A stretch of 63,337 bases of DNA, counting the filler, from Reclinomonas americana ATCC 50394 (Eukaryota): NCBI GenBank assembly GCA_048213135.1. It is 4 parts of 3 records of this genome, joined end to end, with 100 filler letters (N's around TTAATTAATTAA, not from the genome) between each part and the next. Parts side by side here need not be neighbours in the genome. Positions count along the whole stretch, not along the records: positions 44,335 to 59,045 come from PS015601.1; 3 more parts are not named here. One strand, given 5' to 3'. The notes under the pieces were generated by a model, which was given only the letters and a program-made list of their open reading frames with translations, made no database searches and was not told the DNA's origin. The first letter of the stretch is position 1, and every line of letters begins with the position of its first letter. Positions 3,301 to 63,337 of the stretch are shown in pieces. Made by a program: the position numbers and the translations under genes.

Positions 3301-6300
3301 CACGGTCAAGGTGGTGCCGAATTCGCTGCAGGTTGCCGGCTCCCTGCTGGTGTCGATCGATGCCAGCACGCTGCCACTCGGTGCAGTGACGACGGTATCG
3401 AATGGTGGCACGTTGGGTGGCACCTTCACCGCGGCTGGCAGCACAATGACGGTGGCGGAGCAGTTTGCGGTGCGTGGACTCGTGTTTAACGGCACCGCCT
3501 ACATGGCGCATTCCGTCGCGACACCACCGACGACGCTGGTAGGCAGCAAACCGTCGTTTACGATTGAAGTGTGGGCATTCAATCCGACTGTTGAGTCTTT
3601 GGAATGGTTGGTTTCGTGGGGCGTTCGATCGACGTACAACCAGATCTCTTTCGGCGCTGGTTCGCATACGGGTTGGGGGGCGGTGTCTCATTTCAACAGC
3701 GATGTAATTTGGAGTGCTGGAGGACCGCCGACAGCGAACGCCTGGCACCTGTTGACGTACACGTCGGATGGCACGACGGATACAATTTACATTGATGGCG
3801 TGCTGTCCAACACCGCTACGCAGGTGTCGCTTGTCATCAGCAGCGCGGTACCGATTACAATCGGATCACAGTACGACTCAAGTGGAGTGGCATATGCCGT
3901 TGGGCGTCCAACGCTCACCATGGCTCGTATCCGTATCCACAGCGGTGCTCTTTCTGCTGCGCAAGTGCTTGCCAACTTTCAGCAGGAGCAGTGTGTGTTC
4001 CTGTCGTCAGTGGTTGTCGGCGGCAGTCCCTTGTCGGTGGCCACTGCTGGCACGCTGTTGGTCTCCATGGACGCCACTGGACTGGCGCTGGGTTCTGTTA
4101 GCACAGTCAGCAATACTGGATCACTGGGCGGTGTCTTCACGGCGACAGCGAGCACCGTGACTGTGGAGCTGACGAATGGTGCTCGTGGTCTGCAGTTTGA
4201 CGGGACGGCATACATGCCACTGTCGGTAAGCACGCCTGCGTCGCTGAAAGGCTTGCGTCCGGTTCTCTCGATCGAGGCGTGGGTGTTGAATCCAGATGTG
4301 GCGATAGAGGAGACGATTGTCGCGTGGGGAATTCGAGCAAACCAACAGTGCTTTGTATTTGAGTACGGCAGCTTTAGTGCATGGGGCGCAGTTGTTCATT
4401 ACAACGATGATATGCCGTGGGGATCACCAGTGCCCGCGGCCGGCACGTGGCACCACTTGGTGTTTACATCGGATGGGACAACAGAGCGTGTGTATGCTGA
4501 CGGATTTCTGTCGAATTCGGGAATCAAGAACCCCAATATCTCCGCGTCCACACCCATCACTCTTGCGTCGCAGTACAACGGCGACGCAAGTCCGAAAACA
4601 ACTCTGCGTGGCACCCTGACGATTGCTCGGCTGCGTATCCACAGCAGCACGTTGACGGCGGCGCAGGTGTTGAATAACTACATGGCGGAGCGTAGCACGT
4701 TTCTGTCGAGCTCCTCTCTAACGTGCACTGTACCGGCGGGCGACTGCAGTGCTGCGGCGACCTCGCTCATCAGCATCGGCGCCAAGAGTGTGGCGAGTGG
4801 AGCGTTGACTGTGGCAAGTGTCACTGCTGGCACGGGAGCGTTGATGGCACCCATGGCCGTGTGTCACATGCCAGTGTCCGCAAGCTCGTTTATCGAACAG
4901 GCGCAGCCGTTGATCACTGCTCGAGGTGCGTGACGGGCGCAGCGAAGGGTACCACCATTTCTTCCTTGTGGTCACTGACGACTGTGTTGGGTGCTGGTCA
5001 TACAGCCACAATGACTGTTTCTGCAGTGTCGCCAAGTACCATCCACCGGCGATCGTGGCAACTTGTCTCGTTGACGGGAAGTTGCGTCGCCCTCATGTTT
5101 AGAGCATCTTTATCCGAAGTACATGTCTCTAACCTGCGGTCGTCGTCATGCAGCCAACTTTTTCGACTTGTCCACCAGCGGCGACTCTGCAGCAGCGGTG
5201 CTATCATCGAATGCGGTGTGTGTGTTCCGTTGCACACCATGAAGCACAGTCTCATCAGCACTTCTAACGACTTGTGTGCAATTGTGCAGAACTGCAGCGG
5301 TACACTGGTGGTGGTGGCGACGTACCAGTCAATTGTTCTCGTCAGCAACAGCAGCTTGTGGGTGCTACTCGATGTGTCGAGCACGGCTGCTGGCACCTAT
5401 GTCATGTGCATCCGGGATCGGCCAGCCGGAGTGTACGTGCTGGCCGGGTCGGTGACCGTCGGTGAGTTGTCGTTACAGGGCAGAAAGAGAGGAGATGAGA
5501 GGGAGAAGCGATGGTAGAAGGCAAAGGTAGACGGTGCAATAGAAGATATGGTGTCTGGGGACAGAGGCACAGAAAAGAGTGAGAGCGATTGCTTCGGAAA
5601 GTGTTGATGACTGCTCATTGGGTGGTCATGTCGCGCATTGTCGTGTTTGTGGGGCACAGAAAGAGTGAGAGCGATTGCTTCAGAAAGTGTTGATGACTGC
5701 TTATTGGTGATCATGTCGCGCGCATCGTCGTGTTTGTGGGGCATTGCAAGAGTGAGGGCAGTGGAATGCAGTGTTCAGAATGCATTGGTTACTGCTTATT
5801 GGTAGTTTTGTCACGCGCACTTTCATGGAGAGGAGGGAAAAGAAATAGGAGACGGAGGTACGGAGAGAAACGACGGCATGTGGCAGAGGAGAAGGAGAGT
5901 GATGACTGCAGATTTGTATGCAATGCATGTTGTTAGTGCTGCATGGCAACCTCATTCTCTGCCCTCTCCACCTTCCCCTGACATTGTTTTTGCTGCCTCA
6001 CCGCAGTGCAAGCCACCATGTCAGTATCGACAATTTCAGCGGCCGCTGCGCAAGCGATTGCACTGACGGGCGGCAGCATGAGCAACACCAGCGCCGACGC
6101 CATGGCATTCATCGTGTCGGCTGACTGCACTGCGGTGTCGCCAGCAGTGGTTGCGTCGACCAGTGTGAGTGCGACTTTTGTCAGTGCCGCGAGTGTCAAT
6201 CTCTCCGTGAACGCCACCGGTGCCACTGCTGGAGCGTACTCGCTGTGCGTACGCTGGACATCCGGCAGTGCGTATCAGTCGCTCGGATCGCTGTCCATTG

Positions 6301-25660: not shown

Positions 25661-25856
25661 GTTGAGTGGAGGGAGGGAGAGGGAGAGGGAGAGAGAGACA
25701 ACTGAGAGAGAGAGAGAGAGAGAAAACAGAGACACAGAGAGCCTGACAGGGAGAGAGAGAGAGAGCATTGAGAGAGAGCCTGGCAGAGAGACAGAGAAAG
25801 ACTGAGACACAGNNNNNNNNNNNNNNNNNNNNNNNNNNNNNNNNNNNNNNNNNNNN

Positions 25857-25868
25857 TTAATTAATTAA
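25857..25868. other. Artificial contig-joining spacer (six-frame stop linker)
   Basis: TTAATTAATTAA flanked by 44 N on each side; genes on both sides are truncated while pointing into it. Confidence 0.95.
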
Positions 25869-26102
25869 NNNNNNNNNNNNNNNNNNNNNNNNNNNNNNNN
25901 NNNNNNNNNNNNGAGAGAGAGAGAGAGACAAGAGAGACGAGACAAGCAATTCAATCAAATGGCGTATGGGAGCAAGAAACAAGAGCGGAAACAAGAGGAC
26001 GAGAGAGAAGCTGTCCAGTCACGAGAAAAGAGAGAGAGAGAGAGAGAGCAACTATCTGTGTATGAGTGAGTGAGGGTGAGAGTGTGTGGGAGGTGTGTGT
26101 AC

Positions 26103-44191: not shown

Positions 44192-44278
44192 GTGAGTCTC
44201 ACGAGACACGCAGGCGCAAGAGAGAGAGACGATCNNNNNNNNNNNNNNNNNNNNNNNNNNNNNNNNNNNNNNNNNNNN

Positions 44279-44290
44279 TTAATTAATTAA
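44279..44290. other. Artificial contig-joining spacer
   Basis: TTAATTAATTAA between N44 runs. Confidence 0.95.
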
Positions 44291-44334
44291 NNNNNNNNNN
44301 NNNNNNNNNNNNNNNNNNNNNNNNNNNNNNNNNN

Positions 44335-47300
44335 TGCCTCGTCGGAGGAGGAAGAGGGACGACGACGCACCACGCGTGGTAAGGTGGTGGAGGACGATGG
44401 GCCGTTTGTGGTGTTGAATACGCATGCGCGCCGGCCGCTGGCGGGGTCGACGGGAGTGGGCGTGGTGCCGCTGCGGCCGGGTCTGCTCACTGCGGCGAGT
44501 CTGTCGGCGCGTGATGCGGGTCTCATGCAGCAGCAGCAGCAGCAGCAGGCGGCAGAGGCGATGCGTGGGGGCGTGCGACTGGGTCCACGTCCGGTCACTG
44601 ATATCTCGTTCCAGTTGCCGCCGACGTTTGCGTTGCCGCCACTGCCCAGAGTTTCGTGCACGTCCTTTGTTGGTTTTGCGGTTGTGAAGCCTCACTTCGT
44701 GTGCCGTGTCCACTCCCCCCAACAGCCACCACAGCCACCTGGAGCTCTCGAAGGCAACGCGTATCTGGGCCTGTCACCGCCGCTTCCCAATCGTCTCATG
44801 TCGCCGTATGCAGGTGCGCCAAACAAACCATTCATGCAAACCTCTCTCCTCCTCTTGCATGCCTCACACTCGAATCACATGACAGAGGAAGGCGGTGCTG
44901 GCGGCGAGACGCGCTCACCCTCCATCTACTCGCCGCAAGTTCGCTACTTCCCGCGCAGTCTGACCGCAGGCGTCGGTTCACGCACGCCGAATTTTGACGA
45001 AGACTCCTCGGCGGACTCGCTGGGCATGACCCCGCGCACCGCTGCCCTATCACCGCCCGATTTGGCGTTCCAGGCGGCTTCACCGCCCGCCGCAGTGGCC
45101 CTGCGACGAGCAGCCGCGGCGGCAGCAGAAAAAGACACCCCGACTCGGCGACATCGGCTGTGCATCACGTGGCTGTGGGTCGCATGGGTCCTGCTTCTCA
45201 TCGGCTGTGGTATCGCCTTCTTCTTTGTGTGGCGCATACATCGCGATCAAGTGACATACAGCACCACGTCCAATACGGTGCGAATCGATTCAAGCGCCAC
45301 GTTGCGTTGTCTTGCTTTGCGTGTATTTCCTGGCACGCACCTTGCTGACGTACTGACTGCTTCCCGCACCACAGTGTCAGCGGTAATCTCACTGTAGCTA
45401 ATAATTCACTCGTTGTCGATGCAACGAGTTCGCGAGTCGGTGTGGGAACCAGCAATCCAACCAAGAGTCTAGATGTGAGTCCGCCCAGTCCCGATTGCAC
45501 AGTGCACCACGCGCGCATTGCTAATGGTGCGCGTCGATGTAGGTGGGTGGCGGCATACAAGCCAATGGTGGCACTCCGTCCGATTCGGGCGGTAATGTGG
45601 GCTACACGTTCAATACGGCCTCGTCATCGTCGTCCGCGTCTCCGACCGGTCTGTTTGCCAGCCGGTTGACCACCACAAACTCGTCGCCGGTGGCGACCAC
45701 CGTGCCTTCGGCACCGAGCGAACGAGGCGCGAGCTCTGGCTCCACAGCATTTGTGGGAGGTACACATTTCGTATCTGCTGTTGCTCCTCGCTCTCTGCCA
45801 GTCACCAACGTGCACCCTCCGACCAGCTCACGATGCGCCTACAATTTCCTCACGCGGTAGCCATGTGCCGTCACCCTCACCCTCACCCTCATCATCATCA
45901 TCATCGTCCTCCTCGTCAACATTCAACGCAGGCGGTGTCCCACCGTCGGTCGCCTCCGGTGCTGTGACAACGACGTCGGAGACCGCGATGGCTGCGTCTC
46001 AGCCGAGTGCTCATTTCCGTGGAGGTGTGTCACACACACACAGCTCCTTCGCTGCAGTTGGTGACGTGTTCGTATTGACGTTCATGTTTATTCCTGTCCG
46101 CCGTAGACACAGAAGCCAGTCCCCGCAGCACCGATGCAATGTCTCGGTCAGCGCCGGGGAGCACTCGAGGCGGATCACTATCGTCCCGTGGTTCGTACTT
46201 TTTTGCGCCACAGCAACATCGCACCTGCTGATGGTCGCCATTACTGTCCTCACTTTCTACCCTCTGCGTCGCTCGCTGTTGCAGCACCCACCACTCACCC
46301 TGTTATGAGTTTGGTGGTCTCCGGCACCGAAATGCTGCGCGTATCAAAAGAAGACAGCAGCAACACTCAATACTGGCACATGGTGGCAAATGGAAGTGCG
46401 TACATTGGCGGCTCTACTCTGGCTCTCGGTCGCCGCTCGGAGGCCGTGGACTCGGTCTCCACCTCCAACTTGGCGGACTCGTATGGTCTTGCGCGAGCAA
46501 TGCAAGTCATCTACGCCACATCGACACAGCCGACTCTGGTGCTCAATTATCAGGAGGACTTTAGTGGTGGTACGTCCTTTTTCTCACCACGCTTGCCAAC
46601 ATGTGCGTGTGCGTGTGTATAACCATGGTGCGCGCTCTGTGTTTGTGTGTGCAGGCCTCCAAGTCGGCAATCGCGCTCTCAAAATCCAACCGCTTACCGG
46701 GTACACCAGCTTTGGTCACTTGAACCCACGCGCTCAGATCGATGTGGCCGGTGGCGTGCGAGTCAACAAGGGCGTGACGAACGACCCGTCGACTTCGAAT
46801 GCTGGTTATTCCTTCGAATCGGACGCACTCACCGGCATGTTTGCCATTGGTACGTACGTGTGCATGCCACCGATAGTTTTTCATCAACGCCACGCTTTTC
46901 TTGCTGCTCACTCCGTTGTGTTGCGTGGTACAGGCGGCACCGCGGCGGACAGCAGCGTATTGACATTGTCGAATCAAGGCGTTGGGCGCATAATGGTGCC
47001 GCCGAACACGGGCACTGCAGTCCTCGTATCCGGCGACTTTAGCGTCGGCGGATCGACGCTTCGTCTCGGTTTGGGCTCGCAGGCCGCCAGCGCAGCAAGC
47101 AATCGCGCTCTCACAGCCTCCGGTCTCAAGCTGTCTCTGAATCCGGTGGGCGACTTTAATCTTGCGGTCATTGGATACGGTGTCGATGGCGCGGGACTTG
47201 TCCGTGTGCACGAAGCCCTGTCGTCGACGGACATGACGCTGGAGGTGTTTGGTGGAGTTCGAGCTGCCACGTCGTACCCTGCGTCGACTTTGGACGCCGG

Positions 47301-50300
47301 GTATTCGTTTGTCAACTTCCCGGCTACCGGCATGTTTTCTCCTGGTGAGCATCTACAATTTTACGCGCATGTGCTACNNNNNNNNNNNNNNNNNNNNNNN
47401 NNNNNNNNNNNNNNNNNNNNNNNNNNNNNNNNNNNNNNNNNNNNNNNNNNNNNNNNNNNNNNNNNNNNNNNNNNNNNNNNNNNNNNNNNNNNNNNNNNNN
47501 NNNNNNNNNNNNNNNNNNNNNNNNNNNNNNNNNNNNNNNNNNNNNNNNNNNNNNNNNNNNNNNNNNNNNNNNNNNNNNNNNNNNNNNNNNNNNNNNNNNN
47601 NNNNNNNNNNNNNNNNNNNNNNNNNNNNNNNNNNNNNNNNNNNNNNNNNNNNNNNNNNNNNNNNNNNNNNNNNNNNNNNNNNNNNNNNNNNNNNNNNNNN
47701 NNNNNNNNNNNNNNNNNNNNNNNNNNNNNNNNNNNNNNNNNNNNNNNNNNNNNNNNNNNNNNNNNNNNNNNNNNNNNNNNNNNNNNNNNNNNNNNNNNNN
47801 NNNNNNNNNNNNNNNNNNNNNNNNNNNNNNNNNNNNNNNNNNNNNNNNNNNNNNNNNNNNNNNNNNNNNNNNNNNNNNNNNNNNNNNNNNNNNNNNNNNN
47901 NNNNNNNNNNNNNNNNNNNNNNNNNNNNNNNNNNNNNNNNNNNNNNNNNNNNNNNTTGGATTTTCACTCGACACGACGACACCAACTGGCCTCTATGTTG
48001 ACAGTTATGTACTCGCGCGCTGCATCAACAACACGGTCTCGGACACCTGAATGCTAAATCTTGTTACTCTTGCATGTGCAGATGCCACTGTGGGCGACCT
48101 GGTGTTGCTGAGCCACGGCCTGGATGTCCTCCGCCTGGTGACTGCAGGCTCAACCACTCTCCGACTATTCACTCGTGATTTTGTCAGCGTAAGCGGCGCT
48201 GGAGATCTGAGTCTGGCCGATGGCTTTGGAGACGTTGTATTACAGACGAATCGCATGGTTTGTGTTTTTGACTTACGTGCGGTCGTTTGATGGAGTGCTC
48301 ACTCTTGTATTGGTGCAGGTGGTCCGCGCAGCCACTGGTTTCGTCGGTTTTGGCGTGACGAACCCGTCGTCAACTGTGCATGCTGTCGGTGGCGTGCGCG
48401 CTGGCAAGGGTGCACCAACTAGCGACAATAGCAATGCCGGCTTCTCGTTCTCGCAAGACGGCGACACAGGAATCTTTGCTGTTGGAGGTACGAGCGATGC
48501 TCATTGTGCCGATACTTTGTCCTTGCTGATCAGTCGCTGACTGTGTGCGAATGTTACTACAGGCGATGCGTCGTCGGGCAGCGAGATACAAATGATTGTG
48601 GATGGCGTAGTCCGTCTGCGCATTCCAGCGGCGTCGACTTCGCCAGTGCGTATCGAAGGAGATCTCGTTGTCACTGGTCTCGCAACTGGAGGCAGTTTCA
48701 CAACAGCAGGCACAGTTGCAGCAGCTGGCTTGATTACCGGCGGCAGTGTGACGACGACCGGCAGCGTCCAATCGGGCACTGTGAGCTCGTTCGGTCTGGT
48801 CAGCGGCGGCAGTGTGACGACAACCGGCAGCATGCAAGCCGGCACGATCAGCACCGGCTCGACGGTTGTTGCTGGCGGTTTGATCACTGGTGGCAGTGTG
48901 ACAACTGCTGGTTATCTGCAGTCCGGCACTGTGAGCTCGTTCGGCTTGGTCAGCGGCGGCAGTGTGACGACAACCGGCAGCATGCAGGCGGGCACGATCA
49001 GCACCGGCTCGACTGTAATTGCCGGCGGGTTGATTACTGGCGGCAGCGTGACGACTGCTGGTTATCTGCAGTCTGGCACTGTGAGCTCGTTCGGTTTGGT
49101 CAGCGCTGGAAGCTTCACCACCACGGGAAGCATGCAAGCAGGCACGATTAGCACCGGCTCGACTGTGACGGCCGGCGGCCTGATCACTGGTGGCAGTGTG
49201 ACGACTGCTGGTTATCTCCAGTCGGGTACTGTGAGCTCGTTCGGTTTGGTCAGTGCCGGTAGCTTCACCACCACGGGAAGCATGCAGGCTGGCACGATCA
49301 GCACCGGCTCGACTGTGATTGCCGGCGGTTTGATTACTGGCGGCAGTGTGACGACGGCTGGTTATCTGCAGTCTGGCACTGTGAGCTCGTTCGGTTTGGT
49401 CAGCGCTGGAAGCTTCACCACCACGGGAAGCATGCAAGGAGGCACCATTAGCACCGGTTCGACTGTGACGGCCGGCGGCCTGATCACTGGCGGCAGTGTG
49501 ACGACTGCTGGTTATCTCCAGTCGGGTACTGTGAGCTCGTTCGGCTTGGTCAGCGGAGGCAGTGTGACGACGACTGGCAGCATGCAAGCCGGCATGATCA
49601 GCACCGGCTCGACGGTTGTTGCCGGTGGCTTGATCACTGGCGGCAGCGTGACGACGGCAGGCAGCATGCAGTCGGGTACTGTGAGCTCGTTCGGCCTGGT
49701 CAGCGGAGGCAGTCTCACCACCACGGGAAGCATGCAAGCTGGCACCATTAGCACTGGCTCGACTGTGACGGCCGGCGGACTGATCACTGGTGGCAGCGTG
49801 ACGACAGCGGGTTATCTGCAGTCGGGCACTGTGAGCTCATTCGGTTTGGTAAGTGGCGGCAGTGTGACGACAGCCGGCAGCATGCAAGCTGGCACGATCA
49901 GCACCGGCTCGACTGTGACGGCCGGCGGCTTGATCACTGGTGGTAGTGTGACGACGGCAGGCAGTATGCAGTCTGGCACTGTGAGCTCGTTTGGTCTGGT
50001 CAGCGCTGGAAGCTTCACCACCACGGGAAGCATGCAGGCTGGCACCATCAGCACCGGTTCGACGGTTGTTGCCGGCGGCTTGATCACCGGCGGCAGTGTG
50101 ACAACTGCTGGTTACCTTCAGTCAGGCACTGTGAGCTCGTTCGGTTTGGTAAGTGGCGGCAGTTTGACGACAGCCGGCAGCATGCAAGCTGGCACGATCA
50201 GCACCGGCTCGACGGTTGTTGCCGGTGGCTTGATTACCGGCGGCAGTGTGACGACGGCTGGTTACCTCCAGTCTGGTACTGTGAGTTCGTTCGGTTTGGT

Positions 50301-53300
50301 CAGCGCTGGAAGCTTCACCACCACGGGTAGCATGCAAGCAGGCACGATCAGCACTGGCTCGACTGTGACGGCCGGCGGCTTGATCACTGGTGGTAGTGTG
50401 ACGACTGCTGGTTATCTGCAGTCTGGCACTGTGAGCTCATTCGGTTTGGTGAGCGGAGGCAGTCTCACGACGACGGGCAGCATGCAAGCAGGCACCATCA
50501 GCACTGGCTCGACGGTTGTTGCCGGTGGCTTGATCACTGGCGGCAGCGTGACGACGGCGGGTTATCTGCAGTCGGGCACTGTGAGCTCATTCGGCCTGGT
50601 CAGTGCCGGTAGCTTCACCACCACGGGAAGCATGCAAGCAGGCACCATCAGCACCGGTTCGACGGTTGTTGCCGGTGGCTTGATCACTGGCGGCAGCGTG
50701 ACGACGGCGGGTTATCTCCAGTCGGGTACTGTGAGCTCGTTCGGCTTGGTCAGCGGCGGCAGCGTGACGACGACGGGAAGCATGCAAGCCGGTACGATTA
50801 GCACCGGTTCGACGGTGATTGCCGGCGGACTGATCACCGGCGGCAGCGTGACGACTGCTGGTTATCTGCAGTCTGGCACTGTGAGCTCATTCGGTCTGGT
50901 CAGCGCTGGAAGCTTCACCACCACGGGAAGCATGCAAGCAGGCACGATCAGCACCGGCTCGACTGTGACGGCTGGCGGCTTGATCACCGGCGGCAGCGTG
51001 ACGACGGCGGGCAGCATGCAGTCTGGCACTGTGAGTTCGTTCGGGTTGGTGAGCGCCGGAAGCTTCACCACCACGGGTAGCATGCAAGCAGGCACCATCA
51101 GCACCGGCTCGACTGTGACGGCCGGCGGACTGATCACTGGTGGCAGTGTGACGACGGCGGGCAGCATGCAGTCGGGCACAGTGAGCTCGTTCGGTTTGGT
51201 GAGCGGAGGCAGTCTCACGACGACGGGCAGCATGCAAGCAGGCACCATCAGCACCGGCTCGACTGTGACGGCTGGCGGCTTGATCACTGGTGGTAGTGTG
51301 ACGACTGCTGGTTATCTGCAGTCTGGCACTGTGAGCTCGTTTGGTCTGGTCAGCGCTGGAAGCTTCACCACGACGGGAAGCATGCAAGCAGGCACGATCA
51401 GCACCGGCTCGACGGTTGTTGCCGGCGGACTTATCACTGGCGGCAGCGTGACGACGGCAGGCAGTATGCAGTCGGGCACTGTGAGCTCATTCGGGTTGGT
51501 GAGCGCCGGTAGCTTCACCACCACGGGCAGCATGCAAGCTGGCACGATCAGCACTGGCTCGACGGTTGTTGCCGGCGGTATGATCACCGGCGGCAGTGTG
51601 ACGACGGCTGGTTATCTGCAGTCCGGCACTGTGAGTTCGTTCGGGTTGGTCAGCGGAGGCAGTCTCACCACCACGGGAAGCATGCAAGCAGGCACGATCA
51701 GCACCGGCTCGACTGTGACGGCTGGCGGCTTGATCACCGGCGGCAGCGTGACGACGGCTGGTTACCTCCAGTCCGGCACTGTGAGCTCGTTCGGCCTGGT
51801 CAGCGGCGGCAGTTTGACGACAGCCGGCATCATGCAAGCCGGCACGATCAGCACCGGCTCGACGGTTGTTGCCGGTGGCTTGATCACTGGTGGCAGCGTG
51901 ACGACGGCAGGCAGCATGCAGTCGGGTACTGTGAGCTCATTCGGTCTGGTCAGCGCTGGAAGCTTCACCACGACGGGCAGCATGCAAGCAGGCGTCATCA
52001 GCACCGGTTCGACTGTGACGGCCGGCGGACTGATCACTGGCGGCAGCGTGACGACAGCGGGTTATCTGCAGTCTGGCACTGTGAGCTCGTTCGGTTTGGT
52101 GAGCGCCGGTAGCTTCACCACCACGGGCAGCATGCAAGCCGGCACGATCAGCACTGGCTCGACTGTGACGGCCGGCGGACTGATCACCGGCGGCAGCGTG
52201 ACGACGGCAGGCAGCATGCAGTCGGGCACTGTGAGCTCGTTCGGTTTGGTAAGCGGCGGCAGTCTCACGACGACGGGCAGCATGCAAGCGGGCACGATCA
52301 GCACCGGCTCGACGGTTGTTGCCGGCGGACTTATCACTGGCGGCAGTGTGACAACTGCTGGTTATCTCCAGTCGGGCACTGTGAGCTCATTCGGGTTGGT
52401 GAGCGCCGGTAGCTTCACCACCACGGGAAGCATGCAAGCTGGCACCATCAGCACCGGCTCGACTGTGACGGCTGGCGGCTTGATCACCGGCGGCAGCGTG
52501 ACGACGGCAGGCAGTATGCAGTCGGGCACTGTGAGCTCATTCGGGTTGGTGAGCGCCGGTAGCTTCACCACCACGGGAAGCATGCAGGCTGGCACGATCA
52601 GCACCGGCTCGACTGTGACGGCCGGCGGCTTGATCACCGGCGGCAGCGTGACGACGGCGGGTTACCTCCAGTCGGGCACTGTGAGCTCATTCGGGTTGGT
52701 GAGCGGAGGCAGTCTCACGACGACGGGCAGCATGCAAGCTGGCACGATCAGCACCGGCTCGACTGTGACAGCTGGTGGCTTGATCACTGGTGGCAGTGTG
52801 ACGACGGCTGGTTACCTCCAGTCCGGCACTGTGAGCTCGTTTGGCTTGGTCAGCGGAGGCAGTGTGACGACGACGGGCAGCATGCAAGCCGGCACGATCA
52901 GCACCGGCTCGACGGTTGTTGCCGGTGGCTTGATCACTGGTGGCAGCGTGACGACGGCGGGTAGCATGCAGTCGGGCACTGTGAGCTCATTCGGTCTGGT
53001 CAGCGCTGGAAGCTTCACCACCACGGGCAGCATGCAAGCAGGCACCATCAGCACTGGCTCGACGGTTGTTGCTGGCGGTTTGATCACCGGCGGCAGCGTG
53101 ACAACTGCTGGTTATCTGCAGTCCGGCACTGTGAGCGCCTTCGGCTTGGTCAGTGCTGGTAGTTTCACCACCACGGGCAGCATGCAAGCGGGCACGATCA
53201 GCACTGGTTCGACTGTGACGGCCGGCGGACTTATCACTGGCGGCAGTGTGACGACGGCTGGTTATCTGCAGTCGGGTACTGTGAGCTCATTCGGGTTGGT

Positions 53301-56300
53301 GAGCGGAGGCAGTCTCACGACGACGGGCAGCATGCAAGCGGGCACCATCAGCACCGGCTCGACTGTGATTGTCGGCGGTTTGATCACCGGCGGCAGCGTG
53401 ACGACGGCAGGTAGCATGCAGTCGGGCACTGTGAGTTCGTTCGGTTTGGTGAGTGGCGGCAGTTTGACGACAACCGGTAGCATGCAAGCCGGCACGATCA
53501 GCACCGGCTCGACTGTGACAGCTGGTGGCTTGATCACCGGTGGCAGCGTGACGACGGCGGGTAGCATGCAGTCCGGCACTGTGAGCTCATTCGGCCTGGT
53601 CAGTGCCGGCAGCTTCACCACCACGGGAAGCATGCAAGCAGGCACCATCAGCACCGGCTCGACTGTGATTGCCGGCGGTTTGATCACTGGTGGCAGTGTG
53701 ACAACTGCTGGTTATCTGCAGTCTGGCACTGTGAGCTCGTTCGGGTTGGTGAGCGGAGGCAGTCTCACGACGACCGGCAGCATGCAGGCTGGCACGATCA
53801 GCACCGGTTCGACGGTGATTGCCGGCGGTCTGATCACTGGCGGCAGCGTGACGACGGCGGGTTATCTGCAGTCGGGCACTGTGAGCTCATTCGGCCTGGT
53901 CAGTGCCGGTAGCTTCACCACCACGGGAAGCATGCAAGCAGGCACCATCAGCGCCGGTTCGACGGTTGTTGCCGGTGGCTTGATCACCGGCGGCAGCGTG
54001 ACGACGGCAGGCAGCATGCAGTCTGGCACTGTGAGCTCGTTTGGTCTTGTGAGCGCCGGTAGCTTCACCACCACGGGAAGCATGCAAGCTGGCACCATCA
54101 GCACCGGCTCGACTGTGACGGCCGGCGGTTTGATTACTGGCGGCAGTGTGACGACGGCAGGCAGTATGCAGTCGGGCACTGTGAGCTCGTTTGGTCTGGT
54201 CAGCGGAGGCAGTCTCACGACGACGGGTAGCATGCAAGCCGGCACGATCAGCACTGGCTCGACTGTGACCGCCGGCGGCTTGTTCACTGGCGGTAGTGTG
54301 ACGACTGCTGGTTATCTGCAGTCCGGCACTGTGAGCTCGTTTGGTCTGGTCAGCGCTGGAAGCTTCACCACCACGGGAAGCATGCAAGCTGGCACCATCA
54401 GCACCGGCTCGACTGTGACGGCTGGCGGCTTGATCACCGGCGGCAGCGTGACGACGGCAGGCAGCGTGCAGTCGGGCACTGTGAGCTCGTTCGGGTTGGT
54501 GAGCGGAGGCAGTCTCACGACGACGGGTAGCATACAAGCAGGCACGATCAGCACTGGGTCGACTGTGATTGCCGGTGGCTTGTTCACTGGCGGTAGTGTG
54601 ACGACTGCTGGTTATCTGCAGTCCGGCACTGTGAGCTCGTTTGGTCTGGTCAGCGCTGGAAGCTTCACCACCACGGGAAGCATGCAAGCTGGCACCATCA
54701 GCACCGGCTCGACTGTGACGGCTGGCGGCTTGATCACCGGCGGCAGCGTGACGACGGCAGGCAGCATGCAGTCGGGCACTGTGAGCTCGTTCGGTTTGGT
54801 CAGCGCTGGAAGCTTCACCACCACTGGCAGCATGTACGCCGGCACGATTNNNNNNNNNNNNNNNNNNNNNNNNNNNNNNNNNNNNNNNNNNNNNNNNNNN
54901 NNNNNNNNNNNNNNNNNNNNNNNNNNNNNNNNNNNNNNNNNNNNNNNNNNNNNNNNNNNNNNNNNNNNNNNNNNNNNNNNNNNNNNNNNNNNNNNNNNNN
55001 NNNNNNNNNNNNNNNNNNNNNNNNNNNNNNNNNNNNNNNNNNNNNNNNNNNNNNNNNNNNNNNNNNNNNNNNNNNNNNNNNNNNNNNNNNNNNNNNNNNN
55101 NNNNNNNNNNNNNNNNNNNNNNNNNNNNNNNNNNNNNNNNNNNNNNNNNNNNNNNNNNNNNNNNNNNNNNNNNNNNNNNNNNNNNNNNNNNNNNNNNNNN
55201 NNNNNNNNNNNNNNNNNNNNNNNNNNNNNNNNNNNNNNNNNNNAGCACCGGCTCGACTGTTACAGCTGGTGGCTTGATCACCGGCGGCAGTGTGACGACG
55301 GCTGGTTATCTGCAGTCCGGCACTGTGAGCTCGTTTGGTTTGGTGAGCGGAGGCAGTGTGACGACGATCGGCAGCATGGAAGCCGGCACGATTAGCACCG
55401 GCTCGACTGTTACAGCTGGTGGCTTGATCACCGGCGGCAGCGTGACGACGGCAGGCAACATGCAGTCTGGCACNNNNNNNNNNNNNNNNNNNNNNNNNNN
55501 NNNNNNNNNNNNNNNNNNNNNNNNNNNNNNNNNNNNNNNNNNNNNNNNNNNNNNNNNNNNNNNNNNNNNNNNNNNNNNNNNNNNNNNNNNNNNNNNNNNN
55601 NNNNNNNNNNNNNNNNNNNNNNNNNNNNNNNNNNNNNNNNNNNNNNNNNNNNNNNNNNNNNNNNNNNNNNNNNNNNNNNNNNNNNNNNNNNNNNNNNNNN
55701 NNNNNNNNNNNNNNNNNNNNNNNNNNNNNNNNNNNNNNNNNNNNNNNNNNNNNNNNNNNNNNNNNNNNNNNNNNNNNNNNNNNNNNNNNNNNNNNNNNNN
55801 NNNNNNNNNNNNNNNNNNNNNNNNNNNNNNNNNNNNNNNNNNNNNNNNNNNNNNNNNNNNNNNNNNNNNNNNNNNNNNNNNNNNNNNNNNNNNNNNNNNN
55901 NNNNNNNNNNNNNNNNNNNNNNNNNNNNNNNNNNNNNNNNNNNNNNNNNNNNNNNNNNNNNNNNNNNNNNTGTGAGCTCGTTTGGTCTGGTGAGTGGCGG
56001 CAGTTTGACGACAACTGGCAGCATGCAAGCCGGCACGATCAGCACCGGCTCGACGGTTGTTGCCGGCGGACTTATCACTGGCGGCAGTGTGACAACTGCT
56101 GGTTATCTCCAGTCTGGCACTGTGAGCTCGTTTGGTCTGGTCAGTGCCGGTAGCTTCACCACCACGGGAAGCATGCAAGCCGGCACGATCAGCACCGGCT
56201 TGACGGTTGTTGCTGGCGGTTTGATCACCGGCGGCAGCGTGACGACGGCAGGCAGTATGCAGTCTGGCACTGTGAGCTCGGTCGGCCTGGTCAGCGCTGG

Positions 56301-59045
56301 AAGTTTCACCACCACGGGCAGCATGCAAGCCGGCACGATCAGCACTGGCTCGACTGTTACAGCTGGTGGCTTGATCACTGGCGGCAGCGTGACGACGGCG
56401 GGTAGCATGCAGTCGGGCACTGTGAGCTCATTCGGTCTTGTCAGCGCTGGAAGCTTCACCACCACGGGAAGCATGCAAGCTGGCACCTTCAGCACCGGCT
56501 CGACTGTGACGGCTGGCGGACTGATCACTGGTGGCAGTGTGACGACTGCGGGCAGTATGCAGTCTGGCACTGTGAGCTCGTTTGGTCTGGTCAGTGCCGG
56601 TAGCTTCACCACCACGGGAAGCATGCAAGCCGGCACGATCAGCACCGGCTTGACGGTTGTTGCTGGCGGTTTGATCACCGGCGGCAGCGTGACGACGGCA
56701 GGCAGTATGCAGTCTGGCACTGTGAGCTCATTCGGGTTGGTGAGCGCTGGAAGCTTCACCACCACGGGAAGCATGCAGGCCGGCACGATCNNNNNNNNNN
56801 NNNNNNNNNNNNNNNNNNNNNNNNNNNNNNNNNNNNNNNNNNNNNNNNNNNNNNNNNNNNNNNNNNNNNNNNNNNNNNNNNNNNNNNNNNNNNNNNNNNN
56901 NNNNNNNNNNNNNNNNNNNNNNNNNNNNNNNNNNNNNNNNNNNNNNNNNNNNNNNNNNNNNNNNNNNNNNNNNNNNNNNNNNNNNNNNNNNNNNNNNNNN
57001 NNNNNNNNNNNNNNNNNNNNNNNNNNNNNNNNNNNNNNNNNNNNNNNNNNNNNNNNNNNNNNNNNNNNNNNNNNNNNNNNNNNNNNNNNNNNNNNNNNNN
57101 NNNNNNNNNNNNNNNNNNNNNNNNNNNNNNNNNNNNNNNNNNNNNNNNNNNNNNNNNNNNNNNNNNNNNNNNNNNNNNNNNNNNNNNNNNNNNNNNNNNN
57201 NNNNNNNNNNNNNNNNNNNNNNNNNNNNNNNNNNNNNNNNNNNNNNNNNNNNNNNNNNNNNNNNNNNNNNNNNNNNNNNNNNNNNNNNNNNNNNNNNNNN
57301 NNNNNNNNNNNNNNNNNNNNNNNNNNNNNNNNNNNNNNNNNNNNNNNNNNNNNNNNNNNNNNNNNNNNNNNNNNNNNNNNNNNNNNNNNNNNNNNNNNNN
57401 NNNNNNNNNNNNNNNNNNNNNNNNNNNNNNNNNNNNNNNNNNNNNNNNNNNNNNNNNNNNNNNNNNNNNNNNNNNNNNNNNNNNNNNNNNNNNNNNNNNN
57501 NNNNNNNNNNNNNNNNNNNNNNNNNNNNNNNNNNNNNNNNNNNNNNNNNNNNNNNNNNNNNNNNNNNNNNNNNNNNNNNNNNNNNNNNNNNNNNNNNNNN
57601 NNNNNNNNNNNNNNNNNNNNNNNNNNNNNNNNNNNNNNNNNNNNNNNNNNNNNNNNNNNNNNNNNNNNNNNNNNNNNNNNNNNNNNNNNNNNNNNNNNNN
57701 NNNNNNNNNNNNNNNNNNNNNNNNNNNNNNNNNNNNNNNNNNNNNNNNNNNNNNNNNNNNNNNNNNNNNNNNNNNNNNNNNNNNNNTGTGAGCTCATTCG
57801 GTCTGGTGAGTGGCGGCAGTTTGACGACAACTGGCAGCATGGAAGCTGGCACCATCAGCACCGGCTCGACGGTTGTTGCCGGCGGACTTATCACTGGCGG
57901 CAGTGTGACAACTGCTGGTTATCTCCAGTCTGGCACTGTGAGCTCGTTCGGGTTGGTGAGCGGAGGCAGTCTCACGACGACGGGCAGCATGCAAGCTGGC
58001 ACGATCAGCACCGGCTCGACGGTTGTTGCCGGTGGCTTGATCACTGGCGGCAGTGTGACGACGGCAGGCAGCATGCAGTCGGGCACTGTGAGCTCATTCG
58101 GTCTGGTCAGCGCCGGTAGCTTCACCACCACGGGCAGCATGCAAGCCGGTACCATCAGCACCGGCTCGACTGTTACAGCTGGTGGCTTGATCACCGGCGG
58201 CAGTGTGACGACGGCGGGTAGCATGCAGTCCGGCACTGTGAGCTCGTTTGGTCTGGTCAGCGCTGGAAGCTTCACCACCACGGGAAGCATGCAAGCCGGC
58301 ACGATCAGCACTGGCTCGACTGTGACGGCCGGCGGACTGATCACTGGTGGCAGCGTGACGACGGCGGGTTACCTCCAGTCGGGCACTGTGAGCTCATTCG
58401 GTCTGGTCAGCGCCGGTAGCTTCACCACCACGGGAAGCATGCAAGCCGGTACCATCAGCACCGGCTCGACTGTTACAGCTGGTGGCTTGATCACCGGCGG
58501 CAGCGTGACGACGGCTGGTTACCTCCAGTCGGGCACTGTGAGCTCGTTCGGGTTGGTGAGCGGAGGCAGTCTCACGACGACGGGCAGCATGCAAGCTGGC
58601 ACGATCAGCACCGGCTCGACGGTTGTTGCCGGTGGCTTGATCACCGGCGGCAGTGTGACGACTGCTGGCTATCTGCAGTCCGGCACTGTGAGCTCGTTTG
58701 GTCTGGTCAGCGCTGGAAGCTTCACCACCACGGGAAGCATGCAAGCAGGCACGATCAGCACTGGCTCGACTGTGACGGCCGGCGGACTGATCACTGGCGG
58801 CAGCGTGACGACGGCAGGCACCATGCAGTCTGGCACTGTGAGCTCGTTTGGTGTGGTCAGCGGCGGCAGTCTCACGACGACGGGCAGCATGCAGGCTGGC
58901 ACTATCAGCACTGGCTCGACTGTGACGGCCGGCGGCTTGATCACCGGCGGCAGCGTAACGACGGCTGGTTATCTGCAGTCCGGCACTGTGAGCTCGTTCG
59001 GTTTGGTGAGCGGAGGCAGTTTCACGACGACCGGCAGCATGCAGG
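44335..59045 (+). CDS. Giant single-pass (probably type II) membrane protein with tail-fibre-like beta modules and a very long Gly/Ser/Thr 50-aa repeat; both ends missing
   Basis: Pro/Ser-rich N-terminal region; TM helix LCITWLWVAWVLLLIGCGIAFFFVW (~45158-45232) preceded by RRHR; then in-frame spliced modules RVGVGTSNPTKSLD|VGGGIQANGG..NVGYTF, LVLNYQEDFSG|GLQVG, GYTSFGHLNPRAQIDVAGGVRVNKG..SNAGYSFESDALTGMFA, GFVGFGVTNPSSTVHAVGGVRAGKGAPTSDNSNAGFSFSQDGDTGIFA; the repeat exon from ~48562 is open in every sequenced block. Confidence 0.85.
48685..59045 (+). repeat. Coding tandem array, 150-nt (50-aa) unit; about 56 copies sequenced, about 69 if the gaps are filled with repeat
   Basis: Consensus TTGSMQAGTISTGSTV[T/V/I]AGGLITGGSVTTAG[YL/SM]QSGTVSSFGLVS[AGSF/GGSL/GGSV]T with an exact 150-nt period; most differences are at third codon positions. 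Confidence 0.97.
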
Positions 59046-59089
59046 NNNNNNNNNNNNNNNNNNNNNNNNNNNNNNNNNNNNNNNNNNNN

Positions 59090-59101
59090 TTAATTAATTA
59101 A
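59090..59101. other. Artificial contig-joining spacer
   Basis: TTAATTAATTAA between N44 runs. Confidence 0.95.
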
Positions 59102-59857
59102 NNNNNNNNNNNNNNNNNNNNNNNNNNNNNNNNNNNNNNNNNNNNGAGAGAGAGAGAGAGAGAGAGATTAGAGTCAGCATGCAGTCAGGCCATCTCACAC
59201 ACTTCGGTATCGGGATGCTCACCATAATGGACTGGTAGGATGACAGTCGGTGCATTACGAGTAGGGCAGCATGCTCGGCCTTGAGCGAGTGCGGCAAGGA
59301 GGGGTGGATGGCTGAGGAAGCAATTGAGCGCACAAAGGAGGGAGACGGCGGAGAAAGAGAAAGAGAGAAACTCTGCAAGGGACATGAAAGAGGGAGAGCG
59401 GGATGACATGCATTCTTCGCAGTCGGAAGGAGAATGCCCACGGCGCACAGGCACAATGGGAAGCAGAGCAGTGATGCCAAAGTGGTGCGCAAAGCAAGAC
59501 GCGAAGAAACAAACATCGGTGACTCGCTCTCCTGAGGCACACACATGCACGAATAAGATGCACACACAACAGACTTCACAACAAGACAACAGACACAACA
59601 GATTCCCAAGTGATTCATCGAGCTCGCACACAAAAAGGAGGTGAGAAAGAGACACGTAAACAGAGGGAGACATGCTTCACGACCGCAGACTATCATTCAC
59701 ATGAAAGGGGAACAAGCACAACAACGACCTCTCTCTCCTCCTCTGTCGTCCTCTCTTCCCCCACCCGCACCCACATGATCACCCACTCTCCCTTGCAAGA
59801 CACGAAAACCAACTCACGATCACCAGCAGCCACCTTCCCTCCCTTCGACTCACCAAC

Positions 59858-60622
59858 TCAGCACCGGAAAAGGACGACCTCGGCATCTTCCGCGATGAAG
59901 CAGCGCAGAACCAGCTCGGGAAGGCATCGTGAATCTTCTTCATCCTCCTGCATCTCTTGCACAGCCAGCATGGCCAAGCGCGCGGCGTCGAGTTCGAGAC
60001 GAGCGAGGCCACGCGGCGTGGACCACAGTCGCACGGTCTTGTCGTAGCCACCCGCACTGACAATGTGCTGACCATCGGGAGAGACGGCCACAGATGACAC
60101 CCATCCAGTGTGTCCCTCCAACCGTCGCACCTCCTCTCCACTCGCCAGAGACCATACCCGAACGGTGCTGTCTCCGCACCCGCTAACAATGTGCTCACTA
60201 CCAGGGGTGACAGCGACTGACCACACCTTTTCGGTGTGTCCGTCCAGCCGTCGCACCTCCTCCCCACTTACCAGCGACCACACTCGTACTGTGCAGTCCC
60301 AGCTCCCACTGACAACGTGCTGTCCATTGGGGGTGACGGCGACAGATGTCACAGTGTCGGCGTGTCCAACCAGCCGTCGTACCTCCTCCCCACTCACCAG
60401 CGACCACACACGTACTGCGTTGTCGAAACTGCCGCTCACAACGTGCTTACCATCGGGAGTGACGACGACAGACATCACCCTAGGGTGCCCCTCCAGCCGT
60501 CGTACCTCCTTGCCACTCGCCAGTGACCACACTCGGACGGTACTGTCCATGCACCCACCAACAATGTGCTTGCCGTCGGGAGTGATGGTGACGGATCGAA
60601 CCACTGCGGGACTACGAATGAT
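59858..60622 (-). CDS. WD40-repeat protein (about 5 highly similar repeats) with a conserved helical C-terminal tail; 5' exons not identified
   Basis: Repeats of SGEEVRRLxGHxxxVxSVAVTPDGxHxVSGSxDxTVRVWSLx, then PRGLARLELDAARLAMLAVQEMQEDEEDSRCLPELVLRCFIAEDAEVVLFRC-stop. Confidence 0.9.
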   Translation of the reverse strand: MIRSPAVVRSVTITPDGKHIVGGCMDSTVRVWSLASGKEVRRLEGHPRVMSVVVTPDGKHVVSGSFDNAVRVWSLVSGEEVRRLVGHADTVTSVAVTPNGQHVVSGSWDCTVRVWSLVSGEEVRRLDGHTEKVWSVAVTPGSEHIVSGCGDSTVRVWSLASGEEVRRLEGHTGWVSSVAVSPDGQHIVSAGGYDKTVRLWSTPRGLARLELDAARLAMLAVQEMQEDEEDSRCLPELVLRCFIAEDAEVVLFRC

Positions 60623-61544
60623 CTGTGCCGATCACTCGCGGTGAGACGCACACACGCGCATCAACATTCACGACGCGCTCAACAACAACTGCACACATGC
60701 ACGAGCACATGGATGCACGCACAGACACCAACCACGCAAAAAAGTGCGCACACATTCACACCTTTGTTGTCATTCTCCGTGTGTGTGTGTGAGCGTGTGT
60801 TTGATTTGCTCGCTCAGGATTGTCACCGTTTCCCGCCTTTCTTCTCCCGCCTTGCTCCGAGACGTCGTCCATCCCTCGCTGCGCTGCAGCCAGCACCCCA
60901 CACAGCATGCGGTAGTGTGTGAACGATGTGGCTTCTTTGATGCGAGTGGGCTTTCGAAGACCGACATGGGACTCGTCGATGAGAAATCGACAGAATGGAC
61001 ATGCAAGGTGGTGGTGGTGGCACGAGGTGAAGCTCCACTGCTCCGTGCATGTCCAGCGACACTCTCTTTCTACTGCCCTGCATTCTCTCTCAACGAGGAC
61101 TGGCATGTCGGGCTGCTTGGATGTGCCCTGTTGTGGCCCAGTTGTGCTGATGCCACAGAATCCATGAAGAAGCGAGTCATGGATACCTCACGCCTCCTTG
61201 GATCGGCCCACAGCGAAGTTGATGAGGGCACCATGATGGCAAACGGTACAAGAGAGGAGCGACCAGCACAGCAGCACAGCGGTGGACGAGGCAGCTGTGC
61301 CGTGAGACTCGCCTCCTCTCACCCAACTCACAATCAACGCCTCGCGCCTTCAATCATACTCACAGTCGGTCGGTGCATTGTCTCATGCATGCACTGTGTG
61401 GCACGGAACCACGTGTCTTCGCATGCCAGTGACGAGTCACTTGCCAGCACGCCTGCCGCACAGAATTGAGACAGTCAATCTTCAAGTCCCGCCAACTTAC
61501 TCCTCAACGAAGATGCAGAACACGCACGCACCTTGTGTTGCTGG

Positions 61545-62951: not shown

Positions 62952-63337
62952 TCAGCACCGGAAAAGGACGACCTCGGCATCCTCGACGATAAAGCAGCGC
63001 AGAACCAGCTCGGGAAGGCATCGTGAATCTTCTTCTTCCTCCTGCATCTCCTGCACAACCTGCATGACCAAGCGCGCGGCGTCGAGTTCGAAGCCAGCAA
63101 GGCCGCGCGGCGTGGACCACACTCGCACGGTCTTGTCGTCGCCACCCGCACTCACAATGTGGAGACCATTGGGAGAGACGGCCACAGACGATACCCATCC
63201 AGTGTGTTCATCCAACCGTCGCACTTCCTCGCCACTCACCAGAGACCACACCCAAATTGTGCCGTCTTCGCTCCCGTGAACGATGTGCTGGCCATCGGGA
63301 GTGACGGTGACACAATACACCCTTCCAGTGTGTCCGT
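62952..63337 (-). CDS. Second WD40 paralog (3' part; continues beyond the window)
   Basis: GHTGRVYCVTVTPDGQHIVHGSEDGTIWVWSLVSGEEVRRLDEHTGWVSSVAVSP..DKTVRVWSTPRG with a near-identical C-terminal tail. Confidence 0.9.
   Translation of the reverse strand, partial: GHTGRVYCVTVTPDGQHIVHGSEDGTIWVWSLVSGEEVRRLDEHTGWVSSVAVSPNGLHIVSAGGDDKTVRVWSTPRGLAGFELDAARLVMQVVQEMQEEEEDSRCLPELVLRCFIVEDAEVVLFRC

Follow-up and report, generated by a model that had tools for sequence, protein, structure and literature searches.

The window analyzed here, a stretch of 63,337 nucleotides (nt) from Reclinomonas americana ATCC 50394 (assembly GCA_048213135.1), carries on one of its scaffolds (44335-59045, PS015601.1) a spliced gene in which a proline-rich segment, a single membrane helix and a series of modules of phage-fibre type are followed by a very long tandem repeat. 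We consider it probable, with room for doubt, that this is a resident nuclear gene whose product, a giant membrane protein of the single-pass type, displays a domesticated phage-type fibre. The proposal stands on a gene model, on the homology of the modules, on purifying selection in the repeat array and on the predicted trimer of one exon, all obtained directly in this analysis. The scaffold has four internal N gaps and no other gene, and the fibre gene is incomplete at both of its ends. The initial annotation had placed the gene at 44335-48690; the first of these positions is the scaffold edge, where the frame is still open, and the second falls within the last exon, which continues as a 150-nt (50-residue) tandem array, interrupted by N gaps only, until it is cut at 59045. 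Its account of the helix, the modules and the introns was sound, but the coordinates were too narrow and missed the repeat shaft, which takes up more than 10 kb of the window. At least 3,800 residues of the protein are visible.

The gene model was built by joining exons of the + strand so that one frame stays open, and contains the following features.

44336-45300, 45375-45474, 45543-45759, 45827-46024, 46107-46190, 46285-46569, 46655-46849 and 46934-47344 (+): exons before the assembly gap.
47957-48003, 48082-48257, 48319-48487 and 48563 onward (+): exons after the gap.
44336-45157 (+): Pro/Ala/Ser-rich segment of 274 residues, open at its 5' side, on the N-side of the membrane helix.
44814-44885 (+): candidate extra intron of 72 nt, in frame, within the Pro/Ala/Ser-rich coding region.
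45158-45232 (+): single transmembrane helix of 25 residues, by hydropathy.
45301-45374 (+): intron 1, 74 nt; its donor GTTGCGT, of the shifted class, follows an exon whose last base is C.
45375-45474 (+): exon encoding the first half of M1, in which the capping loop RVGVGTSNPTKSLD lies.
45475-45542 (+): intron 2, 68 nt, GTGAGT..TAG, which splits module M1.
45543-45759 (+): exon completing M1 (its second half, as far as 45668) and beginning a Ser/Thr/Pro-rich linker.
45421-45474 and 45543-45668 (+): module M1, complete.
45827-46024 and 46107-46190 (+): linker exons rich in Ser/Pro/Thr, with intron 46025-46106 between them and phase-1 splices that keep the frame.
46285-46569 (+): spacer exon, ending in LVLNYQEDFSG.
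46657-46848 (+): module M2, complete, in exon 46655-46849.
47152-47343 (+): module M3, complete, in exon 46934-47344, which is a whole repeat period of spacer and M3.
47378-47955: assembly gap (N) within the gene, concealing the remainder of one intron and most of module M4.
47957-48003 (+): module M4, partial, cut by the assembly gap so that only its end GFSLDTTTPTGLYVD is present.
48082-48257 (+): spacer exon.
48319-48487 (+): module M5, complete.
48488-48562 (+): last intron, 75 nt, GTACGA..CAG.
48563-48726 (+): head of the last exon, a spacer leading into the array.
48727-59045 (+): tandem array of 50-residue (150-nt) units, Tandem Repeats Finder (TRF) period 150, cut by the scaffold end.

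The eight exons before the gap give 818 residues without a stop over seven introns of 67-94 nt, and after the gap the frame remains open over three more introns (61-78 nt) and then into the array. The ten complete introns are all GT..AG and 61-94 nt long, and one further intron enters the assembly gap. At intron 1 the frame is kept by the GTTGCGT donor only. An intron-rich, resident nuclear gene with shifted-class donors had been described at the outset, and the ten introns with this one donor agree with it. Donors are in phase 1 at 8 of 11 sites (the exceptions being 45301, 45475 and 48258), most of the phase-1 donors splitting two G's directly after the end of a module. Two of the introns are confirmed by homology to uninterrupted relatives: the flanks of intron 2 (45376-45474 and 45546-45668) match P0025 at residues 227-253 and 256-287, and those of the last intron (48322-48486 and 48565-48726) match P0121 at residues 66-103 and 110-148. 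These results bear on the explanation that the scaffold is bacterial or phage contamination, or an assembly artefact with a collapsed or inflated repeat. It is a single-gene scaffold cut at both ends, with four gaps inside, and the identity of its modules to bacterial proteins is high (50-61%); however, the introns fall within conserved modules at the very points where uninterrupted relatives read straight through, unlike what is found in bacterial or phage DNA, and the array units differ mainly at third codon positions, which marks them as distinct copies and not as assembly echoes. We hold contamination or artefact to be extremely improbable.

The module signature G[YF][ST][FL]x5-12TG[MILV][FY] occurs five times, always in + strand exons (45600-48477), with no further occurrence in any of the six frames of the 63-kb window. 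The four module copies first reported correspond to the complete M1, M2, M3 and M5, to which the gap-cut M4 is added. A loop G[VF]GxxNP had been placed ahead of three modules; it is exact in M1 (GVGTSNP) and M5 (GFGVTNP), but M2 has a near match only (SFGHLNP). The LxLNxxxDF segments noticed with the modules are present as LVLNYQEDF and LSLNPVGDF. In the available text of Caulton et al. 2024 (PMC10769870), a loop of the form V-G-G/N-pi-x-x-P-x-x-x-L caps the edges of a three-chain beta-helix and is common to the solved Bdellovibrio MAT fibres, the T5 fibre, the K1F endosialidase and MyRF. The capping-loop motif appears here as VGVGTSNPTKSL in M1 and VGFGVTNPSSTV in M5, in the weaker form SFGHLNPRAQI in M2, and degenerate in M3.

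An observation on the same modules concerns the position of their introns. A phase-1 intron lies three residues past the closing F/Y in four of the five modules (M2-M5, with donors at 46850, 47345, 48004 and 48488), a regularity which suggests that the modules were duplicated together with their intron, i.e. inside a eukaryotic genome.

A profile of the module, searched against 1.84 billion representative proteins, gave 3,958 matches at E<=0.001 and 362 at E<=1e-10. A Pfam scan was made of 33 proteins taken from the best 150 matches: 11 end in Peptidase_S74 (hereafter S74), one of these also having BppL_N, one carries a phage tail Collar and one Gp53-like_C, three gave only weak or implausible rows, taken for chance, and 17 are without a family. 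One of the top matches of the profile, P0002, combines BppL_N with S74. At the level of single modules, M5 is 51% identical over all its 55 residues (E 8e-18) to P0025, which ends in S74, and 61% identical over 51 residues to P0081/P0179 of Candidatus Omnitrophota; M2 is 58% identical to P0007 over 50 residues and 54% to the Omnitrophota protein P0179. Among PHROGs, M5 matched the unnamed phrog_33377 (E 3e-7) and phrog_14570 (E 3e-4). A DNA motif encoding GYAFxxDGDTGMF was matched exactly in three contigs of uncultured viruses and in six species genomes, those of Bdellovibrio sp. qaytius, a Bdellovibrionales metagenome-assembled genome, Thioploca, Parabeggiatoa, Omnitrophota and Kordiimonadaceae; of the motif-carrying open reading frames (ORFs) scanned, 3/3 contain S74 and 3/3 have tail-fibre PHROG matches. 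The likeness to trimeric fibre modules of phages and predatory bacteria, often ended by S74, that the initial annotation had put forward is borne out by profile homology and by 51-61% single-module identity, and the modules are clearly homologous to those in the shafts of bacterial and viral fibres. A word-index search with M2 among longer proteins gave no match, and the clusters that a protein atlas returned for exon 7 (46936-47343) were all bacterial and unnamed (0.90); as recognition did not reach the mark, they are a lead only.

Five proteins from short contigs, P0121, P0105, P0129, P0083 and P0028, share the whole period, including LxLNxxxDFxGG. Exon 46934-47344 matches P0105 and P0129 along its length, and the LxLNxxxDFxGG segment is also found in P0105, P0129 and P0028. 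Because several of the five end in or contain junk resembling translated intron or flanking sequence, the spliced fibre family is probably present in other, uncultured eukaryotes. A module tree, made by a quick method from 56 columns and 159 rows and poorly resolved, places the four modules of the fibre gene within a group of 31 (support 94) with bacterial modules of GGIRAxKG type; M1 and M3 fall in a subgroup of eight that consists of the fibre gene and the same five short-contig proteins only. On the donor and the number of acquisitions the tree supports no conclusion.

Trimeric assembly, which had been proposed together with the module family, was examined by predicting exon 46936-47343, a full period of 136 residues, in three copies, without an alignment and alongside controls. 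The trimer score was 0.47 (0.53, 0.46 and 0.47 in the single runs) against 0.00 for the best control. Contact agreement reached at least 79%, with a partner pLDDT (predicted local distance difference test) of 55 or more and 633-679 contacts along nearly the whole chain. The mark used is one that 21 of 30 solved same-chain pairs reach and none of 23 single chains does, a calibration only roughly valid for three copies. The predicted intertwining of the three copies supports a homotrimer of intertwined chains for the module exon.

The largest part of the protein is the repeat shaft. The 51 complete units that could be measured are each exactly 50 residues long, and the array spans at least 10.3 kb. 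Units are identical at 0.93 of amino acid and 0.847 of nucleotide positions, and their differences by codon position 1/2/3 number 4307/2317/22545. Since the differences concentrate at third positions, the array is coding in the + frame, old, and under purifying selection; reverse-strand ORFs within it (e.g. 48370-49836) were rejected as genes, the variation following the third positions of the + frame. Its 2,809 visible residues are 62% Gly/Ser/Thr (Gly 23%, Ser 0.187, Thr 0.208), with two charged residues, both Glu, and no D, K, R, H, C, P or W. Glycine positions delimit nine segments of 5-6 residues in each unit, which is made of four 11-mers (GSVTTAGYLQS, GTVSSFGLVSA, GSFTTTGSMQA and GTISTGSTVTA), of the form G-[ST]-x-[ST]-[ST]-x-G-x-x-x-x, followed by GGLITG; autocorrelation peaks at 5-6, 11, 22 and 50. 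A 500-residue query from the array found 27 proteins at E<=0.001, the best being P0151 (E 6e-56, 37% identity). Against PHROGs the array gave a weak tail-fibre row, and a search among longer proteins (3,668-5,000 residues) gave one match, P0181.

On the other side of the modules, the Pro/Ser-rich segment and single membrane helix of the first description are found as the 274-residue stretch and the 25-residue helix at 45158-45232. The N-side segment contains P 0.12, A 0.12 and S 0.09, and no Pfam family is above threshold in 44336-45277. The helix is the sole strongly hydrophobic stretch, with a Kyte-Doolittle 19-mer maximum of 2.56 (next best segment 1.27), and is flanked by K, R, R, H, R on its N-side and by R, H, R, D on its C-side. 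The outer part of the protein is cysteine-free and Ser/Thr-rich, with four N-x-S/T sites before the gap. The charge of the flanks (positive-inside rule) and these features of the outer part favour a cytoplasmic N-side and an external fibre.

The opposite placement would be that of a factor like MYRF, tethered to the membrane, with the beta-helix and an off-scaffold S74 domain in the cytosol and a fragment released by self-cleavage. As described in the sources available, two membrane proteins of eukaryotes, MYRF and Dictyostelium MrfA, combine a triple beta-helix of phage type with an S74 domain; the present protein would likewise be a eukaryotic membrane protein with such a helix, and the capping loop is reported in MyRF (PMC10769870, available text); moreover, the true N-terminus of the gene lies off the scaffold. 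However, the membrane span of MYRF comes after the helix and chaperone, and that of the present protein before the fibre modules; the Pfam search of the N-side segment gave neither the Ndt80-type DNA-binding domain of MYRF/MrfA nor any other domain; the charge around the helix favours an inward N-side; and a MYRF-like factor has no place for an uncharged, Ser/Thr-rich rod of 2,800 residues, size and repeat content being very different in the two cases. A factor of this kind seems very unlikely.

Among known systems, the nearest to the modules are the MAT (mosaic adhesive trimer) and related S74-ended fibres of Bdellovibrio bacteriovorus, other bacteria and phages (Bd3182, 8ojn/8onb/8onc; T5 L-shaped tail fibre, 4UW8; K1F endosialidase, 3GW6), which have the same capping loop V-G-x-G-x-x-x-P-x-x-x-L-x-V and, after it, the same module. 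The exact module motif is found in two Bdellovibrionales genomes, single modules of this gene are 50-61% identical to those of bacterial S74-type fibres, and a trimer is predicted here. Unlike MAT fibres, the gene carries spliceosomal introns and belongs to a eukaryotic host. According to the available text of PMC10769870, MAT proteins start with a signal peptide and a beta-rich N-terminal domain of about 130 residues, whereas here a 274-residue tail and an internal membrane helix are found. The Pro-rich segment and membrane helix precede the fibre in a layout that is not that of MAT proteins, no search having been aimed at the MAT N-domain itself. Most of the length of the present protein is, in contrast to MAT fibres, a uniform 50-residue repeat, and its tip, with any S74 domain, is off the scaffold.

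For the shaft, the closest parallel in design is TLP-12, a pond glycofibril solved by cryo-electron microscopy (bioRxiv 10.1101/2025.09.30.679562). The available text of the preprint describes a trimeric stem of G1-S2-x-x-S5-x7 dodecapeptides, each repeat forming two sides of the triangle and bearing O-glycans at S2 and S5, with 14 nm for 18 repeats; the candidates are giant Amoebophrya proteins (one of 19,853 residues) with a C-terminal ICA/S74 domain, and about 150 candidates are listed in six alveolates. The array studied here likewise belongs to a giant eukaryotic Gly/Ser-rich repeat protein, and keeps G1, [ST]2 and [ST]5 in all four of its 11-mers. Segments of about six residues would form the sides of a triangular three-chain helix here too, and kinship with S74 fibres is common to both. 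The dodecapeptide itself was not found, the array having a period of 11 within its 50-residue unit (4 x 11 + 6); it is also richer in Thr and hydrophobic residues than the stem as described. Moreover, MAT-type modules and a membrane anchor precede the repeat here, whereas the word 'transmembrane' has 0 occurrences in the available preprint text. Set against the published description of TLP-12, the array shows a likeness in design and not membership. By sequence, the array is nearest to P0151, P0152 and P0155, phage-like fibre proteins from uncultured sources with repeats of about 17 residues rich in Gly/Thr/Ser, a period of about one third of the 50-residue unit. Their matches (E 6e-56 to 4e-24, 32-37% identity) cover 80-92% of the 500-residue query, and P0152 and P0155 end in S74. 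These proteins are of 1.6-2k residues and have other head or tip domains, and P0151 and P0152 are without such a membrane helix.

Long modular S74-type fibres encoded in protist DNA are also known from viruses, and the most serious rival explanation is that the gene is an endogenous virus gene (of a polinton-like virus, a virophage or a giant-virus insert) coding for a virion attachment fibre and not for a cell structure. According to the available text of PMC12220804, the polinton-like viruses that sit in the genomes of protists ubiquitously encode fibre proteins with a C-terminal S74, reaching up to 3.9k residues, and the build of one top match of the module profile, BppL_N with S74, is among those described. 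The scaffold has no other gene, so that the neighborhood cannot be read. However, the viral fibres of that description carry Laminin_G_3, collagen, PTR or BppL_N, whereas this gene has other modules, host introns and a membrane anchor. Ten spliceosomal introns with host-type signals, including the GTTGCGT donor, a cytoplasmic-type tail and membrane helix ahead of the fibre, for which a virion fibre has no need, and strong purifying selection on a very long array argue against a viral gene, which we judge improbable. Polinton-like viruses are, nevertheless, a plausible route by which the modules entered the eukaryote.

Several results weigh against the reading of a domesticated trimeric fibre, or limit it. 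(i) None of the 8 exon pieces reaches any Pfam threshold and none shows Peptidase_S74, the scaffold ending inside the array. (ii) A sequence search of the PDB gave nothing significant, the best relevant entries being the Bdellovibrio fibres 8ojn and 8oml at E 2.3-4.9, and tblastn against 50,697 named phage records gave one weak match, to a major tail protein (E 0.01). (iii) In the module tree the four modules of the gene do not form one group, their placement requiring 4 changes, no better than with shuffled labels. (iv) The trimer prediction covers one exon at pLDDT 55-64, was calibrated on pairs and may reflect memory of solved fibres; the monomer model of that exon is poor (pLDDT 57.5, predicted template modelling score, pTM, 0.23), which would be expected of a chain that folds only when intertwined, yet proves nothing. 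(v) The topology is not secure, the true N-terminus being off the scaffold, where an upstream signal peptide would invert it. (vi) The array would have about 69 units if its N gaps (54850-55243, 55474-55970 and 56791-57786) are true to size, and given these three gaps the copy number is uncertain; the matches of the array may owe something to composition, the matching proteins being of low complexity. (vii) A monomer model of six array units is all-beta with a regular pattern per unit, at pLDDT 59.5 (34-41 in the other four models), and Foldseek found nothing for it at E<=0.001, the top non-significant rows being single-chain beta-helices.

The last of these points touches on a further explanation, in which the shaft is a single-chain beta-solenoid of the autotransporter-passenger or antifreeze type and only the proximal modules, or none, trimerise. 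The regular all-beta pattern of the 50-residue unit speaks for it, as do the top Foldseek rows, TibA and an antifreeze protein (none significant), and the names 'autotransporter adhesin' or 'filamentous hemagglutinin' that some array relatives bear in their sources. However, the confidence of that monomer model is low, two relatives of the array, P0152 and P0155, carry at their end S74, a chaperone of trimerisation, the nine segments of a unit agree with three turns in a triangular helix of three chains, and a trimeric stem built on a G-S-x-x-S repeat has been solved, as the available text of bioRxiv 10.1101/2025.09.30.679562 describes. A single-chain shaft is in our opinion unlikely.

Other rows of these searches were set aside. 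Membership of the sarcoglycan family has no Pfam match above threshold in the eight exon pieces, the rows for DUF1206 and Bflower_2 on these pieces are below the cut-offs and were taken for chance, and the PDB rows of the array (decay-accelerating-factor, MORN) are compositional.

The remainder of the window consists of separate scaffolds, joined by three N44-TTAATTAATTAA-N44 linkers at 25813-25912, 44235-44334 and 59046-59145. The linkers mark artificial joins, so that any feature crossing them would be an artefact.

25857-25868, 44279-44290 and 59090-59101: linker core TTAATTAATTAA, with stops in six frames, flanked by runs of 44 N.

ORFs upstream of 44235 were accordingly rejected as part of the fibre gene, since they sit on another scaffold. 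On one of these other scaffolds, a single open frame of 1,213 residues (1292-4930, + strand) contains two legume-lectin and two Laminin_G_3 domains; arrays of Laminin_G_3 are described in viral fibre proteins of protists in the available text of PMC12220804, and the product may be another surface or fibre-type protein. Another scaffold carries two closely similar WD40-repeat coding stretches, at 59858-60631 (- strand; five WD40 repeats, E 1.7e-54) and 62952-63335 (- strand), where TRF gives repeats of 126 nt and 179 nt; a WD40 gene seems to have been duplicated locally.

For the fibre protein of the domesticated, membrane-anchored reading we infer the topology, length and role, and for the shaft a trimeric state and glycosylation, as follows. 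The Pro-rich tail would face the cytoplasm and all that follows the membrane helix would face outward. The proximal outer part would be a chain of periods, of about 140 residues where seen whole, each running from a beta-strand spacer ending in LxLNxxxDFxGG, through a capping loop VGxGxxNPxxxLDV, to the module GGxRAxKGxPxxxxxNxGYSFxxxxxTGMF, whose bacterial and viral relatives fold as three intertwined chains (a triple beta-helix) aided by a C-terminal S74 chaperone. In the distal shaft each Gly-delimited segment would be one side of a triangular three-chain beta-helix; the nine segments of a unit would then make three turns, which would explain the super-period of 50 residues. Being almost free of charge and 40% Ser/Thr, the shaft is probably coated with O-glycans, and with the rise of TLP-12 its visible part would be of the order of 0.2 micrometre. 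By analogy with such fibres elsewhere, the surface fibre might serve as a coat or hair, in adhesion, or in the capture of particles or bacteria. The product is probably a long fibre of borrowed design on the cell surface.

Fibres chaperoned by S74 are known as the attachment organs of phages, as the prey-binding fibres of Bdellovibrio and as virion fibres of polinton-like viruses; in cells they are known from the small helix of MYRF and from unassigned glycofibrils linked to giant alveolate proteins in a preprint of 2025. In the open-access papers and preprints consulted on such fibres we found no spliced, membrane-anchored cellular gene that joins MAT-type modules to such a repeat. The present gene, a spliced and membrane-anchored host gene with bacterial-type modules and a rod of more than 2,800 residues, is a concrete and testable case of the fibre as a cellular surface structure, and its nine Gly-delimited segments per unit offer a regular sequence for asking how a very long triple beta-helix is specified. 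A bolder version, possible but in our view doubtful, would be that fibre modules of phage or prey-binding type gave the protist its own family of cell-surface organelles, membrane-rooted, three-chain, glycan-coated hairs of about 0.2 micrometre, serving as a coat, as flagellar hairs or in the capture of bacteria, and that the charge-free 50-residue repeat is a new solution for a triple beta-helix of arbitrary length. If this bolder version is true, the viral-type triple beta-helix would be a structural material of eukaryotic cells, beyond its use in the virus or as a bacterial weapon.

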